Source: Candidatus Thorarchaeota archaeon (GTDB taxonomy: Archaea; Asgardarchaeota; Thorarchaeia; Thorarchaeales; Thorarchaeaceae). Taken from it: a stretch of 64,000 bases of DNA. Made by a program: the position numbers and the translations under genes. Positions 33,584-42,508 of this stretch are shown here, in pieces. The notes under the pieces are model-generated. The model did not search any database. It was given only the letters and a program-made list of their open reading frames with translations, and was not told the DNA's origin. Position 1 is the first letter of the stretch. Every line of letters starts with the position of its first letter. Where the stretch lies: assembly GCA_963726195.1 (NCBI GenBank), contig CAVSBO010000015.1, forward strand, positions 32,001 to 96,000, read 5' to 3'.

Positions 33584-34969
33584 CTACTCTCTGGAAGTTT
33601 CTCGTAGTCGCTCTGCCTTTTCCTTGTGCATCTTTTCCATTGCTTCTCTTACAGCATTTAGTCTCTCTCCATGAAGAGGGTAGTACTTCAAGCAGGCTAG
33701 TGCTAATGCCATGGCTATGAGCGGGATTGTCGTCATGGCTAGTCTGAATATCAGACTGATTTCCGGGGTTGGAGGCATACCGCCTTGGTATCCCGTCAGA
33801 CCGAAAACCACTGCTGCCGTCAACCCACTCAGGACAAACCCAAACCTGCCAAGGAAGCCGTTCATTCCGAAGTAGACTCCCTCTCTCCTGATTCCCGAGT
33901 AGACCTCATCTTCGTCAATGATCTCACTCACCATGACCTCGGGGAGCATCATGTATCCGGAGAGGCCAATGCCAGCAAGTAACATCACGGGCAACACTTG
34001 GGTAAGACCCGAAACAAACAGAAATGGTTGGAGCGAAATAGCGAAGACAGTCATGGTCACGATGAAGCATTTTCTGGTTCCATATTTCCTGTAAGCTCTA
34101 GCCCATACCGCAAGACAGGGCAGCGCGGAAACGAACATGCCCAGCAGGAGGATTGTCACGTCCCCTGGTGATATACCCATGATGTTAGTTGCAAAGAACT
34201 GGAGCATGCTGTCCATCCATAGGAAGGCATACTGGATCATCAGGTTGGCCACAGCGAAAATGAGGAATGTTCTATTCCTTAGCGTGGTCTTGAGGGTTTG
34301 GCCAAGTGATGGATTCGCTTCCAAGCTCACTCCTTTCTTTCTTTATTCCAGATTACAGAGATTATGAAAGGTAAGGACCCGACTGCACCCAAGAACAATC
34401 CAACCAGTCTATACGCATCATATACTGTCATTGCCTTCGAGAGATTTTCAATCATCATTGGCATGGAGAAAGCCAGTATGAGAACCTAATGCAGCGAACA
34501 GCTGTCGGGCAAGCTGAGCCTGCGATCTATCCTTAGGAGTTTCGTAGAGTTCCGGAAACATGGAAACGTAAGGAACGCTGACCAGCGTGTAGAAGCCGTC
34601 GAAGGCGATTATGGTGAGAAGGAAATAGATGAAAATCGGGATATTGAATGGTTCCGATAACGGAAGATTCGTCGCCGGGGGAGTCCAGACCAATAGGTAA
34701 GTGACAAAGAGAAAGATTGCGCCAATGAGTATGTAAGGTCTTCTTCTTCCCCACCTAGAACGAGTTCGGTCCGAGAGAACGCCGAAAAGTGGATCATTGA
34801 TTGCATTCCACACGCCGTAAATCGCTATGGCTATTCCGTAGAGGACTCCATCGAGTCCGATGTATTTCTTATCGACATAGAAGGTCAAAGCGAACGTCGC
34901 GAAAGCATTGTAGAGCAAAGACGCTCCCAAGTTTCCCGAAGCATAGCTTATCTTCGCTCCCAAACCCAT
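33584..34969 (-). CDS. MFS transporter, glycoside-pentoside-hexuronide (MelB/MFS_2) family; frameshifts near 34480 and 34350
   Basis: 'WNAINDPLFGVLSDRTRSRWGRRRPY', 'IIDEDE..G.RREGVYFG', 'YPL'. Confidence 0.88.
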
Positions 34970-35197
34970 GTTCGCAGCTCCCTATCTGCCCGTTGACTGT
35001 CAGGTCTTGTTGCCTTCGTTCTGCACTACGGCTCACGGGCATTTATCCGGATTACTTTAACTTGCTCCTCATCTGGATTACGTCTGAAGTCGTCGGTCTG
35101 TGTAGCTGAATGAGCATCCTGACTAGAGGTTACATACTCGAGCTAATACACAGAAGATAAATCCACGATTGCATTCCGTTCGGGTTAAGGTATTTGG

Positions 35198-35530
35198 ATG
35201 TCCCAAGAGAAGATACTGGCTCACCTCAAGGAAATTGCCAAGCGATTCGATGACCCAAAGATACAGAAGAGATTCGTGGGCTACAATAAGACGCTCCAGT
35301 TTGTGTTTCCCGACATCAAAGCGAGCATGTACCTGAAGATTGGCGACGGGAAAGTTCTTGCAGTCGGAGAAGGAGTAGTGCCAGCGGAACTGCAGGTGAC
35401 AATGGACTCTACGGTCTTTCTTGGCATAATGGCAAAGACAGAAAGCCCGATGGCTGCGTATTCTGCAGGCAAGCTCAAGACAAAAGGCGAGGTCCCCGAT
35501 CTGCTGAAGTTGCAGAAGCTCCTGCTGTAG
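35198..35530 (+). CDS. SCP2 sterol/lipid-binding domain protein (copy 1)
   Basis: 'ELQVTMDSTVFLGIM...SPMAAYSAGKLKTKG...LLKL' SCP2 signature. Confidence 0.85.
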   Translation: MSQEKILAHLKEIAKRFDDPKIQKRFVGYNKTLQFVFPDIKASMYLKIGDGKVLAVGEGVVPAELQVTMDSTVFLGIMAKTESPMAAYSAGKLKTKGEVPDLLKLQKLLL

Positions 35531-35685
35531 GTTTAGACATCCACTTCTCAGGTTAGTATCGTTTCATCGGTCCTTGTTTATAGTATGTGAGCTGAGATTT
35601 GTTGCTTGTGACGGCATTCCTAACTTGACGAGATTGCATGAATGTTTTAAAGGGGCGCTCATTCCGGTTCAACACGCGAGCCCCG

Positions 35686-36705
35686 GTGATAGACTTGAGA
35701 GTACTCATAACTGCGCCATTTTCCGAATCAGGACTGAAGACAATCAGAGATGCCGGTGTGACGGTTGTGCACCAGAGCTGGCTCGAGACCGGCAAGCTCT
35801 ACCTAGGCGACTCTTTCATCAAGCCGATTAAAGAAGCCGGTGCTGAAATCATCGTGGTGGAGGGCGATGAAGTCAAGGAAGAGGTGATTGCCGGCACTTC
35901 TCTCAGGCTAATAGGGTCTGCCAGGAATGATCCAAACAACATTTCCATCCCGGCTGCGACCGCAAAGAAGATTCCTGTAATCAGTGCGCCGGGCAGGAAC
36001 ACGAATGCGGTCGCGGAGCTTACAATAGGACTGATGTTGAGCGTTGCCCGCAAGATTGTATCATGTGAACGTTTTCTGAAGAGCGACTTCTTTGTGAACG
36101 ATTTCAGCGATTTCGCACGTATGTACAAGACATTGACGGGCTTCGAGCTGAACGGGCGAACCGTGGGCATCATCGGTCTTGGTTCGATTGGGTTTGAGGT
36201 CGCGAAGCGGCTCCAAGCGTTTGGCGCCCGGCTTCTTGTCTTTGACCCGTATGTAGACAATGCAAGAGTTCGTCAAGTAGGAGCTGAGGTGGTGAAGCTT
36301 GATGAGCTTCTGAAACGCTCTGATATCGTAACGGTGCATTGTCCGCCAACGCCCGAAACAAAGGGAATGATTGGAGCTAAGCAGTTCGCACAGATGAAAA
36401 AGACAGCCATATTCATCAATACGGCAAGGGCGATAATCACCGATGAAGCGGCACTTCTTGATGCTCTTAAGTCCGGGACGATTGCCGGCGCAGGTCTTGA
36501 TGTCTTTTCGATGGAGCCCATTGACTCCGACAATGTATTCCTGGGCCTTGACAACGTCGTTGTGACGCCACACATGGGAGGCAACACAATCGACACTCTA
36601 GAACGTCAATCAGCAATGATTGCAGCCGACATTGTCGCCTTCGTCAAGGGCAAGAATCCGCAGCACGTACTGAACCCTGAGGTGTTCGATAGGAGGGCCA
36701 AGTAG
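35686..36705 (+). CDS. D-isomer-specific 2-hydroxyacid dehydrogenase family (SerA-like fold, no ACT domain)
   Basis: 'PGRNTNAVAE', 'GIIGLGSIG', 'INTAR', 'LDVF..EP', 'TPHMGG'; TATA-like TTTTAAA at 35645. Confidence 0.9.
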   Translation: MIDLRVLITAPFSESGLKTIRDAGVTVVHQSWLETGKLYLGDSFIKPIKEAGAEIIVVEGDEVKEEVIAGTSLRLIGSARNDPNNISIPAATAKKIPVISAPGRNTNAVAELTIGLMLSVARKIVSCERFLKSDFFVNDFSDFARMYKTLTGFELNGRTVGIIGLGSIGFEVAKRLQAFGARLLVFDPYVDNARVRQVGAEVVKLDELLKRSDIVTVHCPPTPETKGMIGAKQFAQMKKTAIFINTARAIITDEAALLDALKSGTIAGAGLDVFSMEPIDSDNVFLGLDNVVVTPHMGGNTIDTLERQSAMIAADIVAFVKGKNPQHVLNPEVFDRRAK

Positions 36706-38214
36706 ATGGTAGTAGCAGCTATTGATGCCGGGACGACAGGTGTAAGATGCATGATCGTGAGTCGTCATGGCGAAGCCCTTGGAATAGGCCGAAGACCGTG
36801 GGGCTACACTACTCCTGCCAGTCTTGAAATAGCAAAGGAGTTCAGCCCCCAAGAGTTCTGGAAGCTTACATGCACCGTTACTCGTGAGGCTCTGAAGGTC
36901 TCGGGCATCCCCAAATCGGAGATTGAGGCTGTCGCCACCACAAGCCAGCGCCATGGAGTCGTGATGCTTGACAAAGACGGACATGAGCTCTACGGAGGCC
37001 CGAATATGGATGCTCGTGGGGCCATGAGCCAGTATGTAATTGAGGACGCGCTCGGAGAAAAGTTCCATGAAATTTCGGGATGCTGGCCTCCAATGGTCTT
37101 TTCCCCTGCGCGGCTTGCTTGGTTCGAAGAAGAAGAGCCCGAGATTCGTCAAGCCGTTGCACATCTTCTTCCAATTAACGACTGGATTACATACCGACTA
37201 TCCGGTTCGTATGCGGCCGACCCTTCCTCTGCGAGTGGTACAGGCTTCCTAGATGTGAAGTCACGTGCTTGGAGTTCTGAGATAACGGATGCACTTGAAA
37301 CCGACAAGTCAATCCTGCCAGAGATACACGAGGCGGGCACTGTCGTCGGGGAGGTCACCAAACAAGCAGAGAAGGATTGTGGGCTCCCAGCGGGTCTCAA
37401 TGTTGTTCAAGGTGGGACTGACACTCACTGTGCCCTGCTCGCGACAGAGACGGGTGTCAACGAAGTCACTGCAATAGCAGGCAGTACTGCGCCGTCGATG
37501 CTGGTTACAGACTGTGCGATATGTGTGCCTGATCAAAAGCTCTGGACAAGCTGCCATATGATTCCTGGCCAGTGGACTGTGGAGAGCAACTCCATGCTGA
37601 CTGGTGCGCTCCTCGATTGGGTCGTGCACCTGCTTTGTGAACGTGCCGAAAACCCGGAGAAGTGCATCAGCCAAATATACGGGAAGCTCTCGGAAATCAT
37701 AGCCCCGGTTCCTCCGGGCAGCCATGAGACCTATGCTGGCCTAGGACCGAGCATCATGGACTGCAGAAAGATGACAGAGGTTCCTCAAGCAAGGATCTTC
37801 TTCCCGCAGCCTGCTCTTCCAAGCGTTGTCTCTCTGGATACAGCGAGTTTGATTAATGCAGTTCTTGAGAATATCACTTACTCAATACGTGGGAACTGCG
37901 ACCAGCTGGCCGAGTTCGCGGAGGTAAAGGCATTGAAGGCGATAGGCGGCCTGACTCGTGCTCCTGCTTGGACAAAGATGCTTGCCAACGTAGTGAACAA
38001 ACCAGTACATATCACGCTTCAATCCGAAGGTAGTCTCCTTGGCGCAGCAATCTGTGCGGCGCGTGGCGCTGGCTGGTATCCCAGCCTACAAGCTGCGGCT
38101 CATGCAATGGTACGGTGGAAACCAGTTGTCGAACCTGACGAGAGAGCGAATGCCTACAAGACGTGCTACTCTAAATGGACAGAGATTTGGTGCGGTTTTC
38201 GAGGTGAACAGTAG
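36706..38214 (+). CDS. FGGY-family carbohydrate kinase (LsrK/xylulokinase-like)
   Basis: 'IDAGTTGVR', 'TSQRHG', 'D.R', 'DPSSASGTG', 'GGTDT', 'IAGST', 'LGAAICA'. Confidence 0.88.
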   Translation: MVVAAIDAGTTGVRCMIVSRHGEALGIGRRPWGYTTPASLEIAKEFSPQEFWKLTCTVTREALKVSGIPKSEIEAVATTSQRHGVVMLDKDGHELYGGPNMDARGAMSQYVIEDALGEKFHEISGCWPPMVFSPARLAWFEEEEPEIRQAVAHLLPINDWITYRLSGSYAADPSSASGTGFLDVKSRAWSSEITDALETDKSILPEIHEAGTVVGEVTKQAEKDCGLPAGLNVVQGGTDTHCALLATETGVNEVTAIAGSTAPSMLVTDCAICVPDQKLWTSCHMIPGQWTVESNSMLTGALLDWVVHLLCERAENPEKCISQIYGKLSEIIAPVPPGSHETYAGLGPSIMDCRKMTEVPQARIFFPQPALPSVVSLDTASLINAVLENITYSIRGNCDQLAEFAEVKALKAIGGLTRAPAWTKMLANVVNKPVHITLQSEGSLLGAAICAARGAGWYPSLQAAAHAMVRWKPVVEPDERANAYKTCYSKWTEIWCGFRGEQ

Positions 38215-38849
38215 TGTACGAGAAAGTGAAGAAAGAGATACAGGGTATCTGTAAGGAATTGCTGAAGGAAGGTCTTGTTGCCGGCACGGCGGGCAATGTG
38301 AGTGCAAGGGTCGATGATCATGTTGCGATAACATACAGTCAGAAGCATTACGACCAAATGCTCCCTGAGGATGTTATGATTCTGGACATGGAGGGGAATG
38401 TAGTCGAGGGTAAGATGAATCCCAGTTCGGAAACGCCAACGCACTTGGAGATTTACCATCAGAGAAAAGACGTCAATGCTGTGATACACACTCACAGCAT
38501 GTATGCCACGGCGATGGCTATCTTGCACAAGCCTCTCCCGCCCGTCATTGACGAAGTGACGGCAAGGCTTGGCGGTGAGATACGAGTTTCCACTTACGCA
38601 CAGCCCGGCTCAACCGCGCTAGGCAAAGCAGTGGTTGAAGGGCTTGAGATGAGAAGTGCTGTACTGATTGCCAATCACGGAGCTCTGTGCTGCGACAGAA
38701 CACTGAGGGATGCTTTCGACGACGCAGTCCTCCTTGAGAGAGCATGTAAGATATACATGCATGCGATTGCCCTCGGAGAACCGGTGCCTATCCCAGAAGA
38801 TGTGCTTGAGAGCGAAGGGGACATTTGGAGAATAGTGAAGGGAGTATAG
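38214..38849 (+). CDS. Class II aldolase/adducin family (fuculose-1-phosphate aldolase-like)
   Basis: 'GNVSAR', 'PSSE...H', 'HTHS', 'NHG'. Confidence 0.92.
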   Translation: MYEKVKKEIQGICKELLKEGLVAGTAGNVSARVDDHVAITYSQKHYDQMLPEDVMILDMEGNVVEGKMNPSSETPTHLEIYHQRKDVNAVIHTHSMYATAMAILHKPLPPVIDEVTARLGGEIRVSTYAQPGSTALGKAVVEGLEMRSAVLIANHGALCCDRTLRDAFDDAVLLERACKIYMHAIALGEPVPIPEDVLESEGDIWRIVKGV

Positions 38850-38860
38850 GAGACCTGCAA

Positions 38861-40637
38861 GTGAAGGCCTATGCCGGCAAGATACTCGTCGCAGACCTAA
38901 CAAAGGGAAAGACGAGTTCTATTGATACTGATTCTGCTCTCGCTGCCAAGTTCCTTGGTGGTGGCGGCTATGCCTGTGCGATGCTGTACGGCATAATGAC
39001 CACTCCTCCTGATCCGCTTGGCCCAGAAAACTTTCTGCTATTCATGACAGGTCCACTGACTGGTACGACGGCTCCTTGCAGTGGTCGTCATGTTGTTTGT
39101 GCGAGGTCTCCTTTGACAGGATTCTGGGGCGAGTCAAACTCAGGTGGCCACTTCGGAGCCAATCTCAAGTTTTCGGGCTTCGATGGGATACTAATCAAGG
39201 GGCGAGCCAAGAAGCCCACCCTCCTTTTCATTGACGACGGTTCCCCGAGTCTGATTCCCGGGGAGCATGTCTGGGGTATGACTACCGACGCTGCTCAGGA
39301 CAGAATCAAGCGCGACCTTGGAAGGGTGCAAGTCGCCTGCATCGGCCCTGCAGGAGAGAACAAGGTTCGATTTGCTAGCATAATGAACGACGAGAGATCA
39401 GCAGCTGAGATGCGGCCTTGGAGCAGTCATGGGTTCAAAGATGCTCAAGGCGATTGCAGTTCGAGGCAAGAATGAGGCCCCGCTAGCAGATCCCAGCGGT
39501 TTCAAGACGTTGGCTCAGAAAGCATTTCAGACTCTCGGTGAGCTTATGGCACCACTGAGAGAGTCGGGCACTGCAGTGTACGTAGACATAGGCATGGACT
39601 TCAATGATATGCCCATCAGGTATTTTCAGGAGACATCCTTCGACGTCTCATCACTCAATGCGAAGGCCATGGCATCGATCCTGACAGGGAGGATTGCATG
39701 TCACTCATGTCCTATTGGTTGTGGTCGCAGGATTTCGATTCCTGAGATGGGTCTCGAGAACGTTGCTGGACCTGAATACCAGACAATCGCGGCTTTCGGA
39801 ACGAACGTCATGAATGCCGACATAAAGCAAGTAGCCAGAATGAATAGGTTGTGCAATCAACTTGGCATGGACACAGTATCATGCGGCAGTACTCTGGCTC
39901 TCGCAATGCACCTGCGCGAAACCGGTGCCCTCGACATAAATCTGGATTGGGGCGATACAGAAAAGATGGCGGATATGATTCAAGCCATCGCCACGCGCGA
40001 AGGGCAAGGGAATTTGCTTGCGGAAGGGTCCAAGAGACTTGGCGATTCTCTTGGTTCCAGTGACGAAGTCATACATGTGAAGGGAATGGAGGTTCCGAAT
40101 CACGATCCTCGTGCATTCTCTGGGATGGCGACAATCTATGCCATAGCATCTCGCGGCGCCACACACCTTGAGGGAGATATGTACAGCGTTGACATGGGTG
40201 CTGACGTAAGGGAGCTCGGAATAAATAGTGGAGACCGGCTCGAGAATGAGGGCAAAGGAGTCATCGCCGCAAAGGCTCAGGACTATAGGGCCTTTTTCGA
40301 TTCACTTGTGATGTGCCATTTTGCAATACTGCCGCTCCAAACGGTTGTTGACCTGGTCAGCTTGGCCACAGGGCGCACGATGAATATCACCGATATGCTG
40401 ACCTTCGGCGCACGCAGTGTGACTATGAAACGATTGTACAATCTGAAGTGCGGTTTGACTCCGCAGGATGACAGACTGCCTACCCAGCTTCTCAAGCCTT
40501 TGCCTGACAGTGCAACTGACGACTTTGCGCCGGATATCGGGCTCCAGCTGCGTGACTACTACAAATACCGAAGGTGGGATGAAAGAACGGGCAGGCCCAG
40601 CATCGAATCACTCAAGGAACTGGGACTGGAGTCTTAG
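38861..40637 (+). CDS. aor: Tungsten aldehyde:ferredoxin oxidoreductase family; frameshift near 39405
   Basis: 'SPLTG..GESNSGG', 'IGPAGEN', 'MGSK.LKAI', 'CHSCPIGC', 'GPEYQT', 'GMDTVS', 'HDPR', 'RGATH', 'YYKYRRWD'. Confidence 0.9.
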
Positions 40638-40981
40638 GCACTCAGCAGACGCTGAAGCTTCAGCAAATCCCTGACTGGCCCCTTTGGTTTAATCCGGCCC
40701 TCCATAGCTGCAATCGAGCCCGAGATTGTTCCATTAAGAACTCCCAGTATGGTCATACTGTCTGTCACTACTGTCATGTCCGGATTCTCCGGAGTCCCTT
40801 CTGTGGCGGACCCGTGTCCGTCTTGGAAGACCATCGTCACGTCGAGTCCTATGTCACTGAAGCTCATGAGCAGAGTTTTGTTGTACCCCTTGAAGTGCTT
40901 CATCATCTTGGGATCTTCTGTCTTGGCAGCCATCTTGCGCATTGCTTGCATAATATCTTCCTTAGTTGCCACAGTGTTCAC
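40634..40981 (-). CDS. SCP2 sterol/lipid-binding domain protein (copy 2)
   Basis: 'PDMTVVTDS..ILGVLNG...AAMEGRIKPKG..DLLKLQ'; paralogue of copy 1 (shared DPK..K.F.GYNKTL...F.DI). Confidence 0.85.
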   Translation of the reverse strand: MNTVATKEDIMQAMRKMAAKTEDPKMMKHFKGYNKTLLMSFSDIGLDVTMVFQDGHGSATEGTPENPDMTVVTDSMTILGVLNGTISGSIAAMEGRIKPKGPVRDLLKLQRLLSA

Positions 40982-41162
40982 GCCTCTGGTCTATGATGTT
41001 GGCATTTCCAGTTTGACCAATGCTTAGAATTGTAATGCCTATACAAAAGCTTGCCGAGCCATTTCTTGCTCGCGCGTGATGGCAATCGGACATGCGCAAT
41101 GGCATGTCCGTATCAGACACCTTATTTCGTGTCCCAAGACGGCTTCAAAACGGCGTAACACC

Positions 41163-42089
41163 GTGCAGATAGCTCAGGATCTTCTACTCAGATTCGGTTT
41201 GTTCTATCTCCTGATACTAGTAGGATACTTGATGAGCAGGGTGTCACAGAAAGTATTCACATTCGGCAAGCTCCTCAACTCTCTTCTGATTAACTTGTTT
41301 CTACCTTTTCTCGTGCTCTATACGCTTCTGAATGCATCCGGTCAGGCCCTCGTGGAACTCTCTGCTATCATCGGGATAGCAGTATTTGTCCACGTTCTCG
41401 GCGCGGCCCTAATGCTCGTGAGACTCAGGAAGTCGAAACTCGAGCGAAGGGCACAAGGGGCTCTGCTGCTTTCTGCTGCGTACCCCAACAGCATCTTCTT
41501 GCCGATTCCACTTGTCCTGATTTTCATAGGACCGCAGGGTATTCCGATTGTAGCACTGTTTTCCGTTGTCCAAGTAACGCTTCTAGCTTTTCTGGGCCCG
41601 ATTGTGGGCTCAGCGTATGGCGGCAAGAAGTCCGACTGGAAGTCTGCCGCCCGGAAAGTCCTCCTGTTTCCACCTCTGCTGGCAGTATTCCTTGCGCTTG
41701 CGCTGATGACCTTAGGTGTAGTTTTGCCAACCATCGTGACGTCGGGTCTCTCTCTGAGCGGCACACTGACGACGTATCTGGCACTACTTGAGGTAGGCAT
41801 TAGCGTCGGACATCGCTTCACCTTGGTCGATGCAAGGACCGCGTTAGATGCGATAGTCGTTCGCCAGCTTGTTGTACCTGCGATTGTTTTCGTTCTTCTG
41901 CTATTCATGGGCCTATCCCAAGTCACTTCGAAGGTTCTTATCTTAGAAGCCATGATGCCAGCGGCGGTAACAACAGTCGTCTACACGGCAGGTCTGAACC
42001 TAGACTCTGAGCTGACGGCGACGGTTGTTACGGTCGGTACGTTGTTGCTTCTCCCGACAATTCCTATTCTGTGGTTAATAATCGGGTAG
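41163..42089 (+). CDS. AEC (auxin efflux carrier) family transporter
   Basis: 'YPNSIFLPIPL', 'FPPLLA', 'RQLVVP', 'EAMMPAA'; about 10 TM helices. Confidence 0.85.
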   Translation: MQIAQDLLLRFGLFYLLILVGYLMSRVSQKVFTFGKLLNSLLINLFLPFLVLYTLLNASGQALVELSAIIGIAVFVHVLGAALMLVRLRKSKLERRAQGALLLSAAYPNSIFLPIPLVLIFIGPQGIPIVALFSVVQVTLLAFLGPIVGSAYGGKKSDWKSAARKVLLFPPLLAVFLALALMTLGVVLPTIVTSGLSLSGTLTTYLALLEVGISVGHRFTLVDARTALDAIVVRQLVVPAIVFVLLLFMGLSQVTSKVLILEAMMPAAVTTVVYTAGLNLDSELTATVVTVGTLLLLPTIPILWLIIG

Positions 42090-42184: not shown

Positions 42185-42508
42185 ATGAGCGGACGCGGTT
42201 CTGAAAAGGAGCGAGACCCCAGCAAGATCAAGAGGTCGCTCGATGATGCAGTGCACAAGCTTGACCAAGAGCCTAGTTCCAGCGAGAGCTGGGGTGAAAC
42301 CCTGTCTCAGAATCGAGAGGAGTGGGAGGAACTCAAGAGGAAAATCAAGGAACGACAGAGAGCGCTGAAGGCTCTGGTGCGTGAGAAGAGGGCAGGCACG
42401 ATCGGCACAGAGGAATTTGATAGGAACTACAAAGCCCTACAAGATGAACTCACGGAACTCGAGTTTGAAGTTTACAACATGCGACTAGGAACAGACCTGC
42501 ATGTTTGA
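42185..42508 (+). CDS. Hypothetical coiled-coil protein
   Basis: Charged helical ORF in an otherwise empty gap; 'GTIGTEEFDRNYKALQDEL'. Confidence 0.65.
   Translation: MSGRGSEKERDPSKIKRSLDDAVHKLDQEPSSSESWGETLSQNREEWEELKRKIKERQRALKALVREKRAGTIGTEEFDRNYKALQDELTELEFEVYNMRLGTDLHV

Follow-up and report, generated by a model that had tools for sequence, protein, structure and literature searches.

We identified a conserved enzyme module with an integral SCP2 partner in a 64,000-nucleotide (nt) stretch of DNA, hereafter the window, from a Thorarchaeota (Asgard) metagenome-assembled genome that is 88.9% complete and whose nearest public relative is Thorarchaeota OWC5. In the window, genes for a D-2-hydroxyacid dehydrogenase homologue, an FGGY-family kinase, a class II aldolase and a tungsten-type aldehyde:ferredoxin oxidoreductase (AOR) lie between two genes for stand-alone SCP2-fold proteins. 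Comparison of the gene set across genomes indicates that it is a real, conserved pathway with an uncharacterised substrate. It also indicates that SCP2 is a component of the kinase-dehydrogenase-aldolase system and not an incidental neighbour, because the linkage persists in different gene orders and in both archaea and bacteria, and because many bacterial proteins carry SCP2 fused between the dehydrogenase and the aldolase. As to function, we tentatively favour, at somewhat below an even chance, a catabolic module that would take a phosphorylated three-carbon unit off the polyol terminus of a molecule that is otherwise hydrophobic.

The association of SCP2 with these enzymes, whose conservation a preliminary description of this DNA had set as a test of its proposal, was found to be conserved in Thor-type loci, in other Asgard lineages with another gene order and in one Anaerolineae bacterium. 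We compared 80 loci from species-representative genomes (28 Thor-type, 15 other archaeal and 37 bacterial) and counted SCP2 as linked when it lay within 6 kb of the kinase. SCP2 was linked in 25 of the 28 Thor-type loci, where it is present upstream as SCP2a, in 9 of the 15 other archaeal loci and in 1 of the 37 bacterial loci; the remaining three Thor-type loci reach a contig end or have too little upstream sequence. Two SCP2 genes are present in 10 of the 28 Thor-type loci. Within the family, kinase orthologues of 58-86% identity were found in 10 of 25 genomes. Synteny inside one family is weak evidence by itself, since the flanking HdrA gene and a small downstream gene are also syntenic. 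The linkage is also kept where the gene order differs, being AOR-SCP2-aldolase-kinase-dehydrogenase in Hodarchaeota (L080, L093) and Thor TM1M.79 (L082), and dehydrogenase-SCP2-kinase-aldolase in the Anaerolineae bacterium (L106). Moreover, SCP2 is kept beside the kinase, the dehydrogenase and the aldolase without a nearby AOR in three loci (L033, L043 and L052) and in most fusions, indicating that SCP2 is not tied to AOR. The earlier suggestion that SCP2 passes the aldehyde to AOR is thus unsupported.

A search for longer relatives of the kinase identified single proteins of 1,257-1,297 amino acids (aa) with the domain order FGGY kinase-dehydrogenase-SCP2-class II aldolase, while the same search with SCP2a alone found no longer proteins. 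A metagenome scan returned 80 loci, at least 48 of them with an uninterrupted frame of 1,150 codons or more. A profile was made from the fetched SCP2 genes of the cluster loci, only one of which is not archaeal, and it matched 44 of the 48 long-frame loci. One fusion carries two tandem SCP2 domains (L167:10001-14413), which echoes the two SCP2 genes in the window. The linkers on either side of the fused SCP2 domain contain 12-14% proline, against 6% overall. Because the three enzymes are fused, the architecture suggests that the kinase, the dehydrogenase and the aldolase catalyse consecutive steps. In at least five loci, AOR lies immediately beside the fused gene. Otherwise, a pooled Pfam scan showed heterogeneous surroundings for the fused genes (143 families among 107 open reading frames, ORFs), and no conserved transporter or regulator was found among them. 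Long dehydrogenase and kinase ORFs in high-GC loci were also considered as fusions and were rejected, as they reflect upstream read-through without an extra domain.

In the window, SCP2a (110 aa; 35198..35530, plus strand; Pfam SCP2, E 6.5e-10) is followed on the same strand by the NAD-type dehydrogenase (35638..36705; Pfam 2-Hacid_dh_C, E 6.8e-61), the FGGY-family kinase (36706..38214; Pfam FGGY_N and FGGY_C), the FucA-type class II aldolase (38214..38849; Pfam Aldolase_II, E 5.5e-56) and the AOR (38861..40637; Pfam AFOR_N and AFOR_C). SCP2b, the second stand-alone paralogue (115 aa; 40634..40981, minus strand; Pfam SCP2, E 5.6e-08), is convergent on AOR, and the two stops overlap by 4 nt. 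Every enzyme family named in the preliminary description was confirmed by Pfam, and the translational coupling that it described holds at all junctions: the dehydrogenase stop TAG (36703-36705) directly abuts the kinase ATG at 36706, base 38214 is common to the kinase TAG and the aldolase GTG, and a gap of 11 nt separates the aldolase from the AOR GTG at 38861. The gap between SCP2a and the dehydrogenase is 107 nt, and often less than 20 nt in relatives. Because a TTTATA-like box lies inside this gap (35570-35590), transcription of SCP2a may here be separate from that of the enzymes.

Both SCP2 proteins exceed the curated cut-off of 21.3 bits of Pfam SCP2 (PF02036), with 39.7 bits for SCP2a and 33.5 bits for SCP2b. 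They are 38% identical (E 5e-22), in agreement with the paralogy proposed earlier. The AF2 model of SCP2a (pLDDT 83) adopts the alpha/beta SCP2 fold, with Foldseek TM values of 0.65-0.78 to SCP2 domains, and its best matches are the alkyl-binding SCP2 domains of alkylsulfatases, A. fulgidus AF1534, UbiJ and human SCP2. Every sequence or fold relative of SCP2a binds hydrophobic ligands. Six stand-alone SCP2 genes are present in the genome; the four outside the module adjoin an SDR, an FAD oxidase, an NMO/Fe-ADH pair and a 3-hydroxyacyl-CoA dehydrogenase, a setting that agrees with the favoured reading. A TnpB/OrfB_IS605 (Cas12f-like) gene (G000:C3:537648-539000; L108:7367-8719) was also seen next to another SCP2 paralogue and an FAD-linked oxidase.

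The dehydrogenase contains both Pfam domains of its family and keeps the catalytic Arg, Glu and His in the conserved motifs NTAR, EP and PH. In place of the canonical loop GxGxDN(I/V)D, the archaeal, bacterial and fused members all have (C/S/T)R(G/N/D)xPxN(V/I)D. The loop reads SARNDPNN in the window, and the subfamily consensus CRGxPxNVD includes an extra conserved Arg (R96 in the window). The departure from the canonical loop, recognised in the preliminary description, is thus a variant conserved throughout the subfamily. The protein scored below the NCBIfam equivalog cut-offs of PGDH (TIGR01327, 264 against 454) and glyoxylate reductase (NF009714, 236 against 455); among solved structures, PGDH was the top match, with glyoxylate reductases directly after. 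The VFDP sequence after the glycine-rich motif suggests, by the known motif rule, that the enzyme uses NAD rather than NADP. The kinase also stayed below the NCBIfam cut-offs, scoring 277 of 528 bits against LsrK, 227 of 380 against XylB, 109 of 471 against FucK, 42 of 528 against RhaB and, likewise below the cut-off, 128 bits against GlpK. Its best match in the PDB is LsrK (5ya0). Since LsrK, XylB and GlpK score above FucK and RhaB, the kinase looks more like enzymes that phosphorylate a terminal CHOH-CH2OH than like ketose 1-kinases.

The aldolase keeps the three zinc His ligands and the catalytic Glu (HxH, NHG and PS(S/V)E), and this Glu is of the FucA type and not the epimerase Asp. None of the equivalog cut-offs was reached (FucA, 162 of 264 bits; ribulose-1-phosphate aldolase, 159 of 300; OtnC, 113 of 250), and the closest relatives of solved structure, DrdA (6btd) and FucA, differ little in score. 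The phosphate loop, ITP(S/T)G in its canonical form, is ITYSQ (38322-38336, residues 37-41) in the window and in G002, a genome of the same genus, and ITPS(S/G/A) in nearly all relatives. For AOR, an intact orthologue was nearest to P. furiosus AOR (1aor, 371 bits) and not to FOR, WOR5 or GAPOR, which places the predicted enzyme in the broad-range 1aor type.

The AOR of the window is split between two frames. One extra base near 39407 (a +1 frameshift) separates ...NDERSAA from RCGLGAVMGSK..., and the frames join at orthologue residue 184, where orthologues are uninterrupted. AFOR_N and AFOR_C are both present, but not in one reading frame in this assembly. Similarly, the MFS_2 (GPH-family) transporter gene on the other side of SCP2a (33584..34969, minus strand; Pfam MFS_2 on both pieces) is spread over three frames: one ORF covers 34448-34969, another covers 33584-34330, and the middle piece is shifted. 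Two compensating indels lie in the range of about 34330 to 34480. A tblastn comparison of an intact MFS_2 orthologue from the same genus with the window showed three in-frame stops. Across the genome, 5 of the 12 AOR-family genes, the one in the window included, are split between frames at differing positions, with paralogues on contigs C3, C5 and C15 of G000, and a FucI-like isomerase gene on another contig (G000 C4:245805-247036) is spread over three frames. Same-strand overlapping open frames, a crude proxy, number 174 per Mb here and 104 per Mb in related loci. Because of these split genes and the raised proxy, the breaks in AOR and MFS_2 are likely to be assembly indels rather than decay. 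The pattern suggests frequent indel errors in the assembly, possibly from long-read consensus, and all gene calls from it should therefore be treated with caution. We considered a programmed frameshift as the cause of the break in AOR and rejected it: there is no slippery site, the orthologues are intact, and four other AOR paralogues are split elsewhere.

In the favoured catabolic scheme, the substrate would be R-CHOH-CHOH-CHOH-CH2OH, with a hydrophobic R. The FGGY kinase would phosphorylate the terminal CH2OH, and the NAD-type dehydrogenase would then oxidise the adjacent CHOH to a ketone, giving a ketose-1-phosphate-like end. The FucA-type zinc aldolase would cleave between C3 and C4 to dihydroxyacetone phosphate (DHAP) and an aldehyde, which AOR would oxidise to the acid with reduction of ferredoxin. 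SCP2, present here in two copies, would hold the greasy part of the substrate and present the polar end to the enzymes. Finally, the acid may be exported by a Mem_trans/auxin-efflux-carrier (AEC) family transporter encoded downstream (41076..42089, plus strand; Pfam Mem_trans, TIGR00946), which was found at this place in 14 of the 28 Thor-type loci. We infer the order of the steps, the direction of the dehydrogenase, the hydrophobic substrate and the role of the exporter from these sequence comparisons.

Phosphorylation is placed before oxidation because of the affinities of the kinase, the lack of an isomerase in most loci, the extra Arg of the dehydrogenase loop, and the precedents of glycerol and erythritol breakdown. 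In GlpK-GlpD and in Brucella EryA-EryB, an FGGY kinase acts on a terminal CHOH-CH2OH and oxidation next to the phosphate follows, which is the order proposed for the module; however, these systems use flavoprotein dehydrogenases, not members of the 2-hydroxyacid family, and involve no aldolase cleavage, AOR or SCP2. The preliminary description had proposed oxidation, phosphorylation, cleavage and a second oxidation. Its use of the kinase and the class II aldolase to give DHAP and an aldehyde for AOR fits the enzyme families, but the first two steps would more likely run in the opposite order. R is taken to be hydrophobic and held by SCP2 because SCP2 is integral to the module and because SCP2-bearing versions have no solute importers, whereas SCP2-less bacterial versions are accompanied by CUT2 ABC or ECF importers. 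In loci of the Hermod- and Promethearchaeota type, the module is flanked on both sides by NfnB/SudA-like and NfnA/SudB-like genes (L067:7951-9381, L026:13059-14525, L068:7650-8504), which fits a pathway that reduces both ferredoxin and NAD. A bolder version, possible but less likely than not, is that SCP2 would act as a non-covalent carrier resembling a swinging domain, lifting an amphiphile from the membrane and presenting its polyol, so that anaerobes would harvest DHAP from the polyol heads of lipids or aromatics and leave an acid. Bacteriohopanepolyols, alkyl polyols and ribityl-bearing aromatics are candidate substrates for such a carrier.

Several points weigh against the removal of a polyol end from a hydrophobic molecule. 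AOR and the MFS_2 transporter are not intact in this assembly. Known substrates of the D-2-hydroxyacid dehydrogenase family are carboxylates and not polyol phosphates. Three Thor loci (L031, L043 and L052) have a FucI/AraA-like isomerase gene next to the cluster, the SCP2-less relatives look like ordinary sugar operons, and a lipid would be a less fitting cargo for the AEC carrier than a small organic acid. Resolution in the SCP2 tree is poor. In addition, the kinases of the SCP2-less bacterial loci are only 32-39% identical to that of the window, and the bacterial substrates may therefore differ.

The leading alternative, a serious but less probable one, is a pathway like those for L-fucose or D-arabinose, with a sugar, deoxy-sugar or polyol that is small and soluble. 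Such a substrate would be phosphorylated and cleaved to DHAP and lactaldehyde, glycolaldehyde or acetaldehyde, from which AOR would make the acid; the dehydrogenase would turn a 2-hydroxyacid (D-lactate or glycolate) into the 2-oxoacid, or make the ketose, and SCP2 would have another role, for example scaffolding. The similarity of the aldolase to FucA and DrdA agrees with this scheme, as do the position of glyoxylate reductase as the second-best NCBIfam model of the dehydrogenase, the place of its solved structures directly after PGDH, and the isomerase genes of the three Thor loci. The SCP2-less bacterial relatives, which include Bacillota and Caldilineaceae, point the same way: they carry a SorC regulator, Zn-ADH, a sugar-isomerase-like TIM barrel, the above importers, FucO-like Fe-ADH and RpiB, and two Bacillota also have AOR. 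However, most loci are without an isomerase; none was found within the 64-kb window, as stated in the preliminary description, and the FucI-like copy of the genome lies on another contig. No NCBIfam equivalog cut-off was reached, and the kinase-dehydrogenase-aldolase fusion suggests consecutive steps and not a dehydrogenase that acts after a separate AOR. With a soluble sugar, the persistence of SCP2 in different gene orders and its place between dehydrogenase and aldolase in the fusions would also go unexplained. The conservative form of this pathway in the preliminary description therefore stays alive through the isomerase genes and the importers of the SCP2-less versions, but its treatment of SCP2 as incidental does not hold.

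Salvage of a by-product derived from S-adenosylmethionine or from signalling is improbable by comparison. A 5-deoxypentose, a methylthiopentose derivative or AI-2/DPD would pass through the LsrK-like kinase, a keto-reducing dehydrogenase and the DrdA-like aldolase to DHAP and acetaldehyde or (methylthio)acetaldehyde, with AOR acting on the aldehyde. The best characterised relative of the kinase is LsrK and the best solved relative of the aldolase is DrdA (6btd), but the score margins over XylB and FucA are small. The lack of a conserved transporter or regulator near the fused genes would suit an internal metabolite. For the look-alike Bacillus yoaDC, a link to sulfur metabolism is so far a guess (PMC2885750). 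Against such salvage, LuxS was not found in the 88.9% complete genome, the cluster has no MtnA-type isomerase and no MtnK/DrdK-type kinase, and these hydrophilic metabolites would leave SCP2 unexplained.

Slightly less probable still is a sugar-acid route, in which the dehydrogenase would act on the 2-hydroxy or 2-oxo acid end of an aldonate and the FGGY kinase on the other end, as in gluconokinase and LyxK, and an enzyme of the class II aldolase fold would cleave or decarboxylate the product, as in OtnC. In favour of this route, 2-ketoaldonate reductases are well known to be paired with FGGY kinases, the Arg that binds the carboxylate in this family is retained in the dehydrogenase, and the aldolase scores 113 bits against the OtnC model. 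Yet the aldolase has better scores with the FucA and ribulose-1-phosphate aldolase models and retains the catalytic Glu of FucA, AOR would be left without an aldehyde to oxidise, and SCP2 would again be unexplained.

Bacteriohopanetetrol (BHT), put forward in the preliminary description as a source of DHAP and a C32 aldehyde that would be oxidised to C32 hopanoic acid, is very unlikely to be the substrate: the chemistry is consistent with a terminal tetrol and SCP2 relatives bind polycyclic and isoprenoid lipids, but no locus points to hopanoids, the genome has only weak partial cyclase-repeat matches, each in a frame of some 300 aa, the fused genes have heterogeneous neighbours, and the AEC carrier is an unlikely exporter for a C32 acid. 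The genes beside L087 that had been considered as squalene-synthase genes are two phosphonate-type binding proteins, not hopanoid genes.

We also surveyed the genes around the module. The MFS_2 gene adjoins it only in the window and in G002; the closest solved structures to its intact orthologue are MFSD2A (84 bits) and MelB (64 bits), a difference too weak to carry an argument. The inclusion of this GPH transporter in the module was not upheld, given its restriction to one genus and its broken frame in this assembly. Downstream of the AEC carrier, a gene for a small charged protein of 107 aa (42185..42508, plus strand) follows; by tblastn it stands after the transporter in most Thor-type loci, syntenic with the cluster.

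Between SCP2a and the dehydrogenase, one locus (L019:1472-4490) contains, by Pfam, an ABC-2 exporter (ATPase and permease), an uncharacterised gene and a winged-helix regulator. ORFs of matching sizes are present in L021, and the same gap of about 3 kb in L032, L040, L041, L046 and L069 probably reflects the same ABC-2 insertion. Directly upstream of SCP2a, L017 carries a four-subunit operon for a group 3b (sulfhydrogenase-type) NiFe hydrogenase (L017:3668-7727), and L020, the locus of a second Thor genome, has one at the same position, a setting that agrees with the favoured scheme; the four genes in L017 had also been considered as a sugar ABC transporter, which was rejected. In L106, the sole bacterial locus with a free-standing SCP2, an SRPBCC gene (Polyketide_cyc2, a lipid-binding fold; L106:7958-8485) precedes the dehydrogenase, in keeping with a hydrophobic substrate.

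In two Bacillota, genes for DUF1152 and an amidohydrolase follow the module (L088:11812-16100, L071:12240-14572); an arginase-family gene and a xanthine-dehydrogenase FAD subunit come next after the amidohydrolase in L088, and ECF transporter genes lie inside the module of L088 and inside a third Bacillota locus (L077). These neighbours hint at a heterocycle-linked substrate in those bacteria. Pooled Pfam scans of the neighbours of the unfused bacterial loci and of the fused genes identified no consistent partner, except CUT2 ABC in some loci and AOR beside some fusions. The scan of the unfused bacterial loci also gave two SQS_PSY and two FadL-type matches.

We then compared the module with known systems. 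The L-fucose and L-rhamnose pathways of E. coli (FucI-FucK-FucA with AldA or FucO, and RhaA-RhaB-RhaD) use the same combination of an FGGY kinase and a class II zinc aldolase; the products are DHAP and an aldehyde that subsequently undergoes oxidation or reduction. In contrast, the module mostly lacks an isomerase, its kinase is closer to LsrK and XylB than to FucK and RhaB, a tungsten AOR stands in the place of AldA, and the variant D-2-hydroxyacid dehydrogenase homologue and SCP2 are integral. In Lsr processing of AI-2 (LsrK, LsrG and LsrF), LsrK is the closest characterised relative of the kinase, but the score of 277 bits lies below the cut-off of 528; LsrG and LsrF are absent from the cluster. 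SCP2 folds occur on or beside enzymes for hydrophobic substrates in the SdsA1/Pisa1 alkylsulfatases, MFE-2, SCPx and UbiJ/UbiT, the group from which the best fold matches of SCP2a come, but no sugar-type kinase and no class II aldolase is linked to any of these. Salvage of 5-deoxyribose by the DHAP shunt (DrdK-DrdI-DrdA) also yields DHAP and a small aldehyde (PMC6079011). The module aldolase is nearest to DrdA, but the kinase belongs to another family, the isomerase is missing, and the dehydrogenase, AOR and SCP2 are added. In the literature that we searched, we found no paper describing this gene combination, and no characterisation of two look-alikes, Mycobacterium Rv0727c-Rv0729 and Bacillus yoaDC.

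Taken together, Asgard archaea share this enzyme set with several bacterial phyla, and it is often encoded as a single four-domain protein. It is unusual for a lipid-carrier fold to be part of a pathway of sugar-type cleavage, and the fused proteins of bacteria make the biochemistry readily accessible. If BHT were the substrate, the module would produce sedimentary C32 hopanoic acid enzymatically and without oxygen. With a plain sugar as the substrate, there would still be a dehydrogenase subfamily without an assignment and an SCP2 partner without an explanation. With an amphiphile, anaerobes would have a new means of living on the polar ends of lipids or cofactors, and the SCP2 fold would gain a role in a catalytic pathway of Asgard archaea.

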